Assembly (NCBI GenBank): GCA_934085585.1
Contig: CAKOHI010000001.1
Span: 76,172-140,171, forward strand
Source: an uncultured Bacilli bacterium
GTDB taxonomy: Bacteria; Bacillota_I; Bacilli_A; RF39; UBA660
Direction of reading: 5' to 3'
DNA length: 64,000 bases
Below the pieces are notes generated by a model. The model did no database searches. It was not told the DNA's origin and saw nothing but the letters and a program-made list of their open reading frames with translations. Numbering within the stretch: position 1 is the stretch's first letter; each line of letters opens with the position of its first letter. Shown here one piece after another: positions 6,790 to 17,651 of the stretch. The translations under genes were made by a program, and so were the position numbers.

Positions 6790-7090
6790 TTGTTAATAAC
6801 TAGCCATTTTTGTGGATTGTGGATAATTTGTGGATAAGTATTAAAAATAATCCACATAATTAACAACATTTTATCAAAATTGGGTTTGTGAATAGTTTGG
6901 GGATAAGTATTAAGTGTATAATTTTTTGTTGATAGTGTTGATAACTTGTTTAAATAGGCATAAATATGGCTTTTTTTGTGTTGATAATTTTGGGGATTAA
7001 AAAAAAGTTATCAAAATTGCAAATTTAGTCTTTTTTTTTTTGGGAAAATAGAGTAAAATTTTAGTTAGGAAATTTAGTTAGCGGGGTGAG
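6790..7090. promoter_or_regulatory. oriC upstream segment: DnaA-box cluster plus AT-rich unwinding element
   Basis: Perfect TGTGGATAA boxes at 6818-6826 and 6829-6837; near-consensus TAATCCACA at 6848-6856 and TGGGGATAA at 6898-6906; TGTTGATAA variants at 6936-6944 and 6979-6987; A/T tracts at 7000-7050 directly upstream of dnaA. Confidence 0.7.
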
Positions 7091-8437: not shown

Positions 8438-8565
8438 TGTTGATAAGTTGGGTATAAATTTGATATATTTTAGAAGAAAAAATAAGGTATTTTAAAAGTT
8501 ATCCACGTTATTAACGCTATTAATAAATATAATAATATAAACTTAAAAGAAAGAAGGAATAAAAA
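8438..8565. promoter_or_regulatory. dnaA-dnaN spacer carrying DnaA boxes (second oriC segment)
   Basis: TGTTGATAA at 8440-8448 and TTATCCACG at 8501-8509 in an AT-rich spacer, as in bipartite Firmicute origins. Confidence 0.5.
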
Positions 8566-9782: not shown

Positions 9783-10211
9783 ATGTTTAGAATTAGTAAT
9801 AATACCCTTTTTATAGAGTTTAATGGCTATGAAACAGTAGTTAAAGAAATTGATACTGATTATAATTTTGCGGGTAATTTAATTAATTCAATTTTAAATA
9901 TGAGTTGTATATATTATGGAAGTTCTTTAAAAGGAAGGATAAAGGGTAGTAAAAGTATTTTAGGTGGAAGTTATAAATTACCAATTATGATTAGTGAAAA
10001 AAATAATATTATATTCTTTCCCATTAAAGATCAAAAGAATTATACTTGGATTAATTTTAATAATGTAAAAAGTTTTGAAAAGATGGATAGTGGTATAAAT
10101 GTGGTATTTAAAAACGAATTAAAGAAGTTTTTTAATGTAAGTTCTACGATATTTAATAATCAATTATTAAAATCTAGTAGATTGTGGTTAGTTTATTTAA
10201 CAAGAGGGTAA
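9783..10211 (+). CDS. comK: ComK-family competence transcription factor homologue (compact, 142 aa)
   Basis: By-eye alignment to B. subtilis ComK: CIYYGSSLKGRIKGS...YKLPIMISEKNNIIFFP...YTWINFNNVKSFE...RLWLVYL matches CRFFGSSYAGRKAGT...HKPPIMVDPSNQIFLFP...CGWISHVHVKEFK...TAWLRTKF. Confidence 0.55.
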   Translation: MFRISNNTLFIEFNGYETVVKEIDTDYNFAGNLINSILNMSCIYYGSSLKGRIKGSKSILGGSYKLPIMISEKNNIIFFPIKDQKNYTWINFNNVKSFEKMDSGINVVFKNELKKFFNVSSTIFNNQLLKSSRLWLVYLTRG

Positions 10212-11416: not shown

Positions 11417-13339
11417 ATGAAAGAAACACATTATACTGATAGTGATATACAGGTTTTGGAAGGACTTGAAGCAGTTAGAAAAAGACCTGGTATGTATATA
11501 GGATCAACTGGTGAGCGAGGTTTACATCATTTAGTTTGGGAAATTGTGGATAATGCAGTTGATGAAGCTTTAGCTGGTTTTTGTGATGATATTGAGGTTA
11601 TGATTAATAAAGGCGATATTATTGAAATAAGAGATGATGGTAGAGGTATACCAACAGGTATTAATGCTAAAACTGGGTTATCAACAGTTGAAACAATATT
11701 TACTGTACTTCATGCTGGTGGTAAATTTGGTGGTGAAGGTTATAAAGTTTCTGGGGGACTTCATGGTGTTGGGGCTAGTGTTGTTAATGCTTTGTCTAAA
11801 TGGCTTGAAGTTAAGATTTATCGTGATGGGAATGTATACTATCAAAGATTTGAAAATGGTGGACATCCAGTTGAACCATTAAAAATTATTGATACTTGTG
11901 ATATTGAAAGAACAGGTAGTACGGTTAGATTTAAACCTGATGAAGAAATATTTACGGAAACAACTGTATATAACTATGATACTTTATATAAAAGATTACA
12001 AGAAATTGCATTTTTAAATAAGGGATTAAGAATTAATTTATATGATTTAAGAGAAACAGTAGAAAAACATGATACTTTCCTTTATAATGGAGGGATTATT
12101 GAATACGTTGAAATGCTTAATAAGAGTAAGACTCCGATTCATGATGATATAATTTATATGGATGGTTCTGAAAATGGTATTGAAGTTGAAGTTGCTTGTC
12201 AATATAATGAAACTTATTCACCAAGTATTTATTCATTTACTAATAATATTAATACTTATGAGGGCGGTACTCATGAAGATGGAGTTAAAGCTGCCTTAAC
12301 TAAAGTTATCAATAGTTATGCTAAAAATGCAAAGATTTTAAAAGAAAATGATGCTGCTTTAATTGGGGAAGATTGTCGCGAAGGTTTAACAATGATTATT
12401 TCTTGTAAGCATCCAGATCCTCAATTTGAAGGACAAACTAAGACTAAGTTAGGTAATAGTGAAGTTAGAAAAATAGCAAGTGATGTATTTTCACAAGGTT
12501 TCGAAAGATTTTTAATGGAAAATCCTAATGAAGCTAGAACTATTGTGGAAAAATGTATTAGTGCTTCACGTGGTAGAATTGCAGCTAAAAAAGCAAGAGA
12601 AGCAACAAGAAGAAAAAGTGATTTAGATATAGTTAACTTTGGTGGAAAACTAGTTGATTGTAAGGAAAAAGATCCAAGTGTTTGTGAAATATTTTTAGTC
12701 GAAGGGGATAGTGCAGGTGGTTCTGCAATTAAGGGAAGAAATAGTATGACACAAGCTATACTTCCTTTGAAAGGTAAAGTATTAAATGTTGAAAAAGCAA
12801 GACTTGATAGAGCTTTAAGTAATGATGAGATTAAAACAATTATTACGGCTTTTGGTACTGGAATTGGACAAGAATTTGATTTAAGTAAAATGAGATATCA
12901 TAAAGTTATTATCATGAGTGATGCCGATGTCGATGGTTCTCATATTAGAGTACTTCTTTTAACATTATTTTATCGTTTCTTTAAACCAATTGTAGAAGCA
13001 GGTTATGTTTATGCTGCTCAACCACCTTTATATTGTATTAAACATGGACAAACTATTAAATATGTTTTAAATGATGATGAAAGAGATGAATATATCAAAA
13101 CATTAAATGAAAAAAATGTTAGATATGATATAGCAAGAATGAAAGGTTTAGGGGAAATGGATGCTGAAGAATTAAATGAAACCACTATGGATATAGATCA
13201 TAGAATTCTTCGTAAAATAACTGTTGATGATGCTATTAGTGCTGATGCAGCATTTAGTAAATTAATGGGTGAAGAAGTTGAACCTAGACGTAAGTTTATT
13301 GAAGAAAATGCAACTTATGCAAAGAATTTGGATTTTTAG
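11417..13339 (+). CDS. gyrB: DNA gyrase subunit B
   Basis: GHKL ATPase motifs ([24 protein letters not shown]), the TOPRIM motif EGDSAGG and the conserved gyrB tail. Confidence 0.95.
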
Positions 13340-15983: not shown

Positions 15984-16759
15984 TGTTTCACGTGGAACAT
16001 AATGTTAGTAATAATTTTGTAATTTTTATATTTTAGTTATTATAAAATAATTTTATAATTAATTAAATTTTTTTAATTTAAAAATAATTTATATGTTTCA
16101 CGTGAAACATAGTGTTGATAACTTGTGAAATATTTATAATTTTTAATTTATTTATTTTTTTGATTATTATTAATAACAATGATGGATATGATGTTTCACG
16201 TGAAACATCATGTTGATAATTTGTTATTTTATATTAATAATTGTATGTTTTTTGATAATTATTAATTATTATTGATTATTATTTTGAAATGTTTCACGTG
16301 AAACATTGTTGATAAGTAGTTGATATTAATTAATTGGATTTTTTTAATATGATTGATTATAATTTTGCTTCATATACGTTTCACGTGGAACATAATGTTT
16401 ATAGTTTGTTTTTAAAAGTAATAGATTTTATCTTTAAATAATTTGGATTTGTCTATTTTTATTTATATTTACTATGTTCCACGTGAAACATAGTGTTAAT
16501 AATTTGTTAATTACTAGCATATTATAATAAACTAATACTCCTTTATTACAATTTTATAGGTAAATTAAGTGATGTTTCACGTGAAACATCATGTTGATAA
16601 AAAGTTTATTAATTTTAAATAGATCACGCAAATAAATTATATTGTTATCTAATAGCTATGTTCCACGTGAAACATTGTTAATAAATTGTTTATAAAATGA
16701 AGTCAATTTTATTAAGTTTGTTAATATGAAATTTATAAGTATATGTTTCACGTGGAACA
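15984..16759. repeat. tandem array of nine parS (ParB/Spo0J-binding) palindromes, each adjacent to a DnaA-box-like 9-mer
   Basis: 16-mers at 15984-15999, 16093-16108, 16192-16207, 16290-16305, 16377-16392, 16475-16490, 16573-16588, 16659-16674 and 16744-16759; all match TGTTNCACGTGAAACA or its reverse complement; the site at 16475-16490 is the exact B. subtilis consensus TGTTCCACGTGAAACA; the site at 16377-16392 has C in place of T at position 1; spacing 84-118 bp. Confidence 0.8.
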
Positions 16760-16984
16760 TTATATTTATAGAAGCTAGTATAATAAAGTGCCAAACAAAT
16801 GTTTGAAATAGATAAAAGCTATCTTGGGAAATGTTTGGTTGACATAATATTTTTATGAGTATTTAAAAAAATAGGAAATATTTAAAAATTATATTTTGGT
16901 TTTTGTAAGGTTAAATAAGGGATTTATGAAGATTTTGTTAATAGAAAAAATTAATATAATTTAATATTTGATTTTTATTAAAAT

Positions 16985-16998
16985 TATTTCCCGGGAAA
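16985..16998. promoter_or_regulatory. Noc-binding-site-like palindrome ATTTCCCGGGAAAT
   Basis: Perfect 14-bp palindrome identical to the B. subtilis NBS consensus; it extends to an 18-bp palindrome TTATTTCCCGGGAAATAA at 16983-17000. Confidence 0.5.
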
Positions 16999-17104
16999 TA
17001 ATTAGTTAACATAATATTTTTGTCGTTTTATGTGTTTTTGGTGATATTTATTGAGATTTTAGGTTACTTTGCTAAATTTAAAAATGAGTTATTAACAAAT
17101 AATC

Positions 17105-17139: not shown

Positions 17140-17218
17140 GTGCAACAAATATGCTGTAAATTGGTCAGGATTGGAAAATAGCAGCCACATCAGCCTATGT
17201 TTGTGTGCACTTTTTTTT
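17140..17218 (+). ncRNA. ffs: signal recognition particle RNA (4.5S/small SRP RNA)
   Basis: Domain IV motif GGTCAGGATTGGAAAATAGCAGCC (compare E. coli GGUCAGGUCCGGAAGGAAGCAGCC); terminal helix GUGCAACAAAUAUGCUG paired with CAGCCUAUGUUUGUGUGCAC; U-run; consensus promoter upstream. Confidence 0.75.
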
Positions 17219-17228
17219 GGAGGAAATT

Positions 17229-17651
17229 ATGAATAACAATTATTTAGAAAAATTAATAGAATTAGCTAGTAAATCATTAGAAACAGATGATGTTCCGATT
17301 GGAGCTATTATAGTAAAAAATGATAACATAATTGCAGAAGGGGTTAATACCCGTCAAAAAGATCAAAATATATTGGGCCATGCTGAAATTAATGCAATTT
17401 TGCAAGCTCAAAAAATAATTAATAATTGGAATTTAAGTGATTGTGATTTGTATGTAACATTAAAGCCTTGTTCAATGTGTATGGAAATAATCAAACAAAG
17501 TAGACTTAAAACTGTTTATTATTTATTGGATAAACCTAGTTATAAGAAAGAATTTTATAAAACTGAAATAAAAGAAATAGATAATTTAGAAATAAAAGAA
17601 ATGTATGCTAAAAAATTAAGTGATTTTTTTAAAAAAATGAGAGAAAAGTAG
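17229..17651 (+). CDS. tadA: tRNA-specific adenosine deaminase TadA
   Basis: CDA zinc motifs HAEINAI and PCSMC; GGAGG RBS before MNNNYLEK, while the ORF-track start lies upstream inside the ffs terminator. Confidence 0.85.
   Translation: MNNNYLEKLIELASKSLETDDVPIGAIIVKNDNIIAEGVNTRQKDQNILGHAEINAILQAQKIINNWNLSDCDLYVTLKPCSMCMEIIKQSRLKTVYYLLDKPSYKKEFYKTEIKEIDNLEIKEMYAKKLSDFFKKMREK

Follow-up and report, generated by a model that had tools for sequence, protein, structure and literature searches.

Probable composite array of parS sites and DnaA-box-like 9-mers near the replication origin of an uncultured low-G+C gut bacterium

The intergenic region downstream of gyrA in the window, meaning the whole 64 kb stretch of DNA that was analysed, raises the question of why parS sites, bound by the partition protein ParB, should repeatedly stand beside 9-mers that resemble boxes for the initiator DnaA. 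The two elements may have been selected together, or the 9-mer may belong to a longer ParB site, to another regulator, to promoters or to a passively amplified repeat. The bacterium, on record from human-gut metagenomes only, has a G+C content of 26%; the window covers its origin region, and the genes there run from left to right as jag-yidC-rnpA-rpmH, dnaA-dnaN-comK-like-recF-gyrB-gyrA, the array, and SRP RNA-tadA-dnaX-ybaB-recR. GC skew switches and gene orientation flips at ~6.8-7.1 kb, immediately upstream of dnaA, and the array, at 15.98-16.76 kb, lies ~9-10 kb to the right of the skew switch, an origin-proximal position for parS. Its host spacer measures 1.3 kb, has 18% G+C and extends from the end of gyrA (15859) to the SRP RNA (17134). 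The spacers between the parS sites contain no ORFs and no Rfam RNAs, the only Rfam matches elsewhere in the window being the SRP RNA and a T-box. The array is unlikely to be a replication origin in its own right, because the skew switch and the orientation flip sit at dnaA, 9 kb away. Two neighbouring genes deserve mention. The gene at 9783-10211, between dnaN and recF, which we take to encode a ComK-family protein at the place where B. subtilis has yaaA, is kept in the sister species. The sister species, represented by four strains (L125-L128; relatives are cited by L numbers), has a well conserved oriC intergenic region and proteins close to those of the window (GyrA 95%, GyrB 98% and DnaA 91% identity), versus 56% for TadA (window 17205-17651 against L125 13698-14141); tadA, which lies just past the array, is thus diverging unusually fast or has been replaced.

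A palindrome search recovered nine parS sites based on the 16-bp palindrome TGTTNCACGTGNAACA, eight exact and one with a single mismatch, at intervals of 85-110 bp; the 64 kb window contains no parS beyond these nine, and none is expected by chance. The array period is ~98 bp, and TRF finds a 98-bp repeat over units 2-3. The palindromes are listed without a strand, and the 9-mers adjoining them, like the second boxes described below, lie on the + strand, 3' of parS. Unit 1 pairs parS (TGTTTCACGTGGAACA, 15984-15999) with the degenerate DnaA-box-like 9-mer TGTTAGTAA 3 bp further on (16003-16011). The DnaA-box variant TGTTGATAA follows parS 2 (16094-16109), parS 3 (16192-16207) and parS 7 (16573-16588) after 3 bp, at 16113-16121, 16211-16219 and 16592-16600, respectively, and parS 4 (16290-16305) after 1 bp, at 16307-16315. 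Its counterpart TGTTAATAA, with two mismatches to TGTGGATAA, stands 3 bp from parS 6 (16475-16490) at 16494-16502 and 1 bp from parS 8 (16659-16674) at 16676-16684. Unit 5 combines the mismatched parS (CGTTTCACGTGGAACA, 16377-16392) with the degenerate 9-mer TGTTTATAG at a gap of 3 bp (16396-16404) and, 2 bp past it, TGTTTTTAA (16407-16415), and unit 9 (parS at 16744-16759) has the most degenerate 9-mer, TATTTATAG, again at 3 bp (16763-16771).

TGTTRATAA is found close to the 3' side of parS in six of the nine units, the gap being 1 bp in two of them and 3 bp in the other four, with 0 and 2 bp both absent, and the remaining units (1, 5 and 9) all have the right half-site GTGGAACA and their degenerate 9-mers at the same offset. 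The first-pass annotation had described this pairing in six of the nine units, and the motif search confirmed it; three of its 9-mer coordinates were right, three had been read 1 bp too low (true starts 16113, 16307 and 16494), and of the gap of 0-3 bp that it gave only the two values above occur. Additionally, and absent from the first-pass annotation, a second, weaker TGTT... box begins exactly 11 bp from the start of the first, leaving a 2-bp gap, in 21 of 27 distinct units of the genus (P ~3e-26). In the window these second boxes are weak in unit 2 (TGTGAAATA, 16124-16132), unit 3 (TGTTATTTT, 16222-16230), unit 4 (AGTTGATAT, 16318-16326) and unit 7 (AGTTTATTA, 16603-16611), and are represented by TGTTAATTA (16505-16513) in unit 6 and TGTTTATAA (16687-16695) in unit 8. 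The 18-mer ATAGTGTTGATAACTTGT of unit 2 is identical to oriC 6931-6948.

Spacer shuffling yielded a mean of 0.005 paired units against the six observed, and 0 of 20,000 shuffles reached six. The mirror (left) side of parS contains 0 TGTTRATAA, the strict motif being one-sided and confined to one strand; relaxed matching of the spacers gives 13 hits on the + strand versus 1.7 expected, and 2 on the - strand. Because information outside the core amounts to only ~0.1-0.4 bits per column, the spacers can be regarded as otherwise unconserved, which also agrees with the earlier description. The six exact copies of TGTTRATAA form a putative DnaA-box cluster: they are near oriC, intergenic, on one strand and within ~800 bp. 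Across the window, TGTTRATAA is over-represented (36 versus 7.4 expected), mainly on the + strand and inside genes. This general excess probably stems in part from codon or oligonucleotide usage, and it does not account for the array result, because the array was tested against local shuffles.

The comparison with oriC bears on the identity of the 9-mer. The oriC box cluster upstream of dnaA (6809-6987, + strand), which serves as a reference outside the array, contains pairs of boxes separated by 2 bp, and the 11-bp box spacing recurs there in TGTGGATAAttTGTGGATAA and TGTTGATAActTGTTTAAAT. Canonical TGTGGATAA occurs at 6818 and 6829, and beside these canonical boxes TGTTGATAA is the commonest one-mismatch box of the window oriC, with copies at 6936 and 6979; a third copy, placed at 8440 by the first-pass annotation, which had the other two right, lies directly after the dnaA stop codon at 8438-8446 (+ strand) and is kept in the sister species. 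In the oriC alignment, the box orthologous to window 6829 is TGTGGATAA in L126 and L127 and TGTTGATAA in L125 and L128, and the TGTTGATAA of window 6979 is GGTGAATAA at the aligned position in the sister strains. In some relatives nearly all oriC boxes are TGTTGATAA (7 of 7 in L149, 6 of 7 in L160). In other bacteria, TGTTGATAA is labelled a DnaA box in an EMSA oligonucleotide from Thermoanaerobacter oriC (PMC1888806), and work on Cyanothece takes TTATCAACA and TTTTCCACA as DnaA boxes (PMC4674748). The DnaA encoded in the window is of the standard kind, and its domain IV bears the conserved signature RDHSTV. The place of the 9-mer in the DnaA-box repertoire of the clade, an earlier suggestion, is thus supported by its use in oriC, its orthologous exchange with TGTGGATAA and the canonical boxes that relatives have at the corresponding place, and we consider it likely that the array 9-mers are DnaA boxes.

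Their strength is another matter. Four of the nine units (TGTTGATAA) are within one mismatch of TTATCCACA (TGTGGATAA), two units have two mismatches, and three are more degenerate. The stringent E. coli DnaA-box consensus is TTATNCACA. TGTTGATAA (TTATCAACA) fails this consensus, with A for C at position 6, and the array 9-mers are probably of low affinity because of that departure; TGTGAATAA and TGTGGATAA of the sister species, L110 and L197 satisfy it. That the window array contains 0 canonical boxes, and that two of its six adjacent 9-mers are two mismatches off, also indicates that affinity may be low. The 9-mers are therefore best described as candidate sites, probably of low affinity and relying on cooperativity. 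A separate observation concerns DnaA itself: among L131-L210, the C-terminus GGKDH[ST]TVMHS accompanies TGTGGAAAA-dominated oriCs, and GGRDHSTVIHA (or STA) accompanies TGTGGATAA/TGTTGATAA oriCs. Domain IV thus appears to co-vary with the oriC box type, and a change in the recognition helix may track the change of box.

Conservation was followed first in the sister species, whose strains each carry 5-6 units from a pool of about 7 (L125-L128, about 12677-13330). In its arrays, TGTTGATAA, TGTGAATAA or TGTTAATAG+TGTGAATAG lies 1-3 bp past each parS apart from the last. The strains differ in which units are present, which suggests that units are often gained and lost by recombination between conserved cores. 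Comparison of the window array with the sister species by blastn gave core-to-core and AT-rich matches only, and no orthologous units could be assigned. Wider recurrence was assessed in two samples chosen without regard to the 9-mer: genomes were scanned for parS pairs, and metagenomes were scanned with the C-terminal domain of GyrA. A large clade, made up of low-GC MAGs that bear the labels Bacilli, Mycoplasmatota or Candidatus Onthocola, shares the gyrA-parS array-tadA layout. Across 73 species-level clusters of this clade, 64 one-mismatch boxes lie within 10 bp of 362 parS sites versus 4.4 expected (P ~1e-50), the expectation being drawn from non-adjacent positions inside the same arrays; this corresponds to a 15-fold enrichment beside parS, and 19 of the 73 clusters have at least two box-adjoined parS. 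Multi-parS clusters near the origin are common across many phyla, and outside the clade there is no box excess near parS (6 versus 4.3 expected, 492 parS).

The form of the pairing differs among lineages. In L197, TGTGGATAA, TGTGGATAT, TGTGTATAA or TGTTGATAA occurs at +1 after 7 of 8 parS; in L110, 4 of 6 parS have TGTGGATAA or TGTGAATAA; in L137, xGTxxATAAc precedes 8 of 9 parS; L175 and L189 have an inverted TTATCAACA at +3/+4 of parS; and the parS-adjacent box of L071, L165 and L181 is TGTGGAAAA. The geometry (side, orientation and gap) is stereotyped inside each array but changes from lineage to lineage, the gap ranging over 1-4 bp in the window's genus, 1-6 bp in L067 and 0-8 bp clade-wide. 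The box type of the array tends to equal the dominant oriC type, namely TGTGGAAAA in L165 and L181, TGTGGATAA/T in L197, and TGTTGATAA in the window's genus and L189, with mismatches in L142, L145 and L141, in a comparison that leaves aside L071, L067 and L110. Since parS arrays with no adjoining one-mismatch box occur in ~half to three-quarters of the related species, including L149 and L160 with their TGTTGATAA-rich oriC, the pairing is dispensable. Other arrangements also occur. Downstream of gyrA, L166 (1762-2700) packs 23 parS tightly in tandem at 41-42 bp, with no DnaA boxes. In L149 (10967-11650), where oriC has exclusively TGTTGATAA, a different conserved element (tttt.cctaa.atatgcc.aaaa) comes after every parS, and the slot beside parS can thus hold other accessory motifs. 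The flanks of parS in the clade often prolong the palindrome by 2-4 bp (CAA..TTG, TCAA..TTGA, TA..TA; for example in L197, L022, L088 and L019), which suggests longer ParB contacts or cruciform potential.

Because the two-part module is kept across the fully diverged spacers of the sister species and recurs in many lineages, we conclude, in line with the first-pass annotation, that the adjacency of parS and DnaA box is very probably selected. One rival treats the box as a functionless passenger, a founder parS and 9-mer having been tandemly amplified and the core homogenised by unequal crossing-over. The ~98-bp period with its TRF repeat over units 2-3, the differing unit numbers of the sister-species strains, which imply ongoing recombination, and the recently amplified arrays with arbitrary conserved flanks in L079, L055, L033 and L166 all fit such a history. 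However, the box has been kept while spacers were randomised within and between species, and the pairing is found in at least 19 species-level clusters with differing geometries, although a founder parS is expected to have a one-mismatch box within 10 bp by chance only ~1% of the time. The enrichment beside parS moreover shows that boxes are not at the arbitrary offsets that a passenger predicts, and we regard this history as improbable. Another possibility, already named at first pass as one that would undo the composite reading, makes the 9-mer part of an extended ParB site or a third degenerate half-site (TGTTGATA versus TGTTTCAC), with no second protein involved. It draws on the initial TGTT that the 9-mer shares with the parS half-site, on their separation of 1-3 bp and on the prolonged palindromes of the clade (CAA..TTG, TA..TA), whereby ParB contacts may exceed 16 bp. 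A palindromic parS with the motif on one side only is difficult to reconcile with it, as are gaps that vary over the ranges given above, with neither spacing nor symmetry fixed, and a side and orientation that flip between lineages. In addition, relatives have TGTGGATAA, TGTGAATAA or TGTGGAAAA in this place, sequences that look like DnaA boxes and unlike parS half-sites and that loosely track their own oriC boxes, and oriC contains the identical 9-mer at places with no parS in the vicinity. The variable gap, side and orientation accordingly disfavour an extended ParB site, which we rate as very improbable.

Two further readings assign the 9-mer to other proteins. TGTTGATAA-nn-TGTT could be the 11-bp direct-repeat site of a different regulator active at oriC too, for example one of the WalR/OmpR family (TGTWAH-N5-TGTWAH), given that a TGT lies one helical turn past the first in 21 of 27 genus units and that unit 6 (16494-16510) matches the consensus exactly. 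That match is nevertheless the only one among the nine units, and the window contains 4 matches versus 1.8 expected; TGTTGA, TGTGGA and TGTGAA break TGTWAH, the +11 partner is missing in L067 and L197, and canonical DnaA boxes take the place of the 9-mer at an orthologous site in oriC, so that we give this reading hardly any weight. Slighter still is the chance that the 9-mers serve as -35-like elements (TTGATA) in promoters which ParB represses or insulates. TTGATA does occur inside TGTTGATAA, and 16213-16241 scores 10/12 as promoter-like, but promoter-like sites in the region number 19 versus 18.7 expected, a suitably spaced -10 exists for one 9-mer only, the spacers have no ORFs or Rfam RNAs, and the boxes of relatives occur in either orientation.

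The partition genes themselves were sought around the origin. Neither soj nor spo0J turned up in the window or over the ~6 kb past jag (L129), and a search of the 64 kb window for ParB motifs gave none. A single ParB-family gene came to light, beside rsmG on the window's contig beyond its left end (L129:15509-16732); it encodes 407 aa. This protein has the Noc-type residues Q173, K179 and R201, versus R173/G201 of parS-specific ParB, scores 271 bits on the Noc model, under the cut-off of 315, and bears a ~190-aa low-complexity C-terminal extension; its gene is followed by neither soj nor spo0J. The Soj/Spo0J modulation of DnaA that the first-pass annotation brought up would thus be no more than a possibility in this genome. 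A perfect Noc-binding site (ATTTCCCGGGAAAT) is present at 16986-16999, 225 bp past the last parS, with the conserved GTTAACATAATATTTT downstream of it at about 17005-17020. The sister species has two Noc sites (L126 ~13350 and ~13506), each with the same conserved 16-mer downstream, and the parS arrays of many relatives have Noc sites interspersed in them (L137, L071, L088, L101, L105, L007 and L055 are listed). Because of this interleaving, parS, Noc-binding sites and DnaA boxes can be viewed as one origin-proximal hub.

The reading that we favour, with moderate confidence and from sequence comparison, is that of a selected composite ParB-site/DnaA-box array. The intergenic region between gyrA and scr would act as an origin-proximal centromere with nine ParB-binding parS sites, each held beside the low-affinity, clade-typical box TGTTGATAA and usually a weaker box 2 bp further on, head-to-tail as in oriC. 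On each unit, a ParB dimer would be loaded and a short DnaA oligomer nucleated alongside, growing away from parS, and the whole would amount to a DnaA-box cluster, like a B. subtilis DBC or datA, embedded in the ParB partition complex. DnaA might then be held at or released from the array according to the state of the centromere and its early duplication; titration or coupling of this specific kind is put forward only tentatively. Alternatively, as has been reported in Caulobacter, DnaA occupancy may act on the centromere, through ParB loading, sliding or the start of segregation. Since side, orientation and gap vary between lineages, the selected property appears to be closeness and not a stereospecific ParB-DnaA contact, and a defined contact is unlikely given such free geometry. 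A more elaborate scheme is direct coupling in cis, in which DnaA-ATP beside parS would gate ParB clamp loading or sliding and a ParB condensate would sequester DnaA after centromere duplication, the arrangement replacing the Soj(ParA) route of B. subtilis in this lineage of small-genome gut Bacilli; its repeated re-invention in many lineages, whatever the geometry, would then mark the pairing as a general solution. We think this scheme unlikely.

The coordination of origin firing with origin segregation in bacteria is only partly understood, and for Firmicutes the main explanation of the link between initiation and segregation has been the action of Soj/Spo0J on DnaA in trans. If the composite array is what it appears to be, it would offer natural comparative evidence, from dozens of species with lineage-specific geometry, that selection acts on how close the initiator and the partition protein lie to each other. 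The compact, synthesizable unit of ~35 bp suits in vitro tests of competition or cooperation between DnaA and ParB, or of DnaA as a roadblock to ParB sliding. Beyond the array, TGTTGATAA as a major DnaA-box type of the clade matters for oriC prediction in low-GC MAGs.

The first-pass annotation regarded such a composite array as undescribed, which stands in part: no description of a one-to-one array of parS and DnaA boxes recurring across a clade was found in the literature searched. The concept, conversely, is not new, because Caulobacter and Vibrio chromosome 2 already provide cases of an initiator that binds at a centromere, as outlined in a review (PMC6399470). The present locus resembles ordinary chromosomal parS clusters in having several canonical parS near the origin, and differs from those outside the clade in its excess of neighbouring DnaA boxes, an excess absent from the 492 sites reported above. 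A further likeness is to the arrays of low-affinity DnaA sites in E. coli oriC, which Rozgaja et al. in 2011 reportedly described as spaced by 2 bp in the same orientation: here too a weaker box stands 2 bp beyond a stronger one in the same orientation, a layout thought to guide growth of the DnaA-ATP oligomer, whereas the boxes in the window lie outside oriC, beside parS, and only two per unit.

Three systems known from other bacteria come closer in function. In B. subtilis, origin-proximal DnaA-box clusters (DBCs) work jointly with Spo0J/Soj and show a genetic interaction with spo0J (Okumura et al. 2012, PMC3245932). Like the present array, they are intergenic DnaA-box clusters outside oriC in a Firmicute, and they restrain initiation in a position-dependent manner (PMC3245932); they are not, however, reported as interleaved with parS, the array boxes of the window are all non-canonical, and no soj was found near its origin over the stretch searched. 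At rctA/parS2 of V. cholerae chromosome 2, RctB and ParB2 bind side by side and the locus titrates the initiator, according to the same review (PMC6399470). The likeness lies in a centromere site with adjacent zones for initiator and ParB, and the difference in that the initiator there is RctB and not DnaA, at a single locus and not an array, on a plasmid-derived replicon. The centromere region of Caulobacter crescentus, a few kb from the origin, has DnaA boxes in parS to which DnaA binds (Mera, Kalogeraki & Shapiro 2014, as reviewed in PMC6399470), and this shared initiator/ParB locus has been proposed to couple initiation with segregation. The parallel is drawn at the level of the review's summary. 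Caulobacter is an alphaproteobacterium, whereas the present array belongs to the Bacillota and gives nearly every parS its own candidate box at 1-3 bp, in an arrangement repeated nine times.
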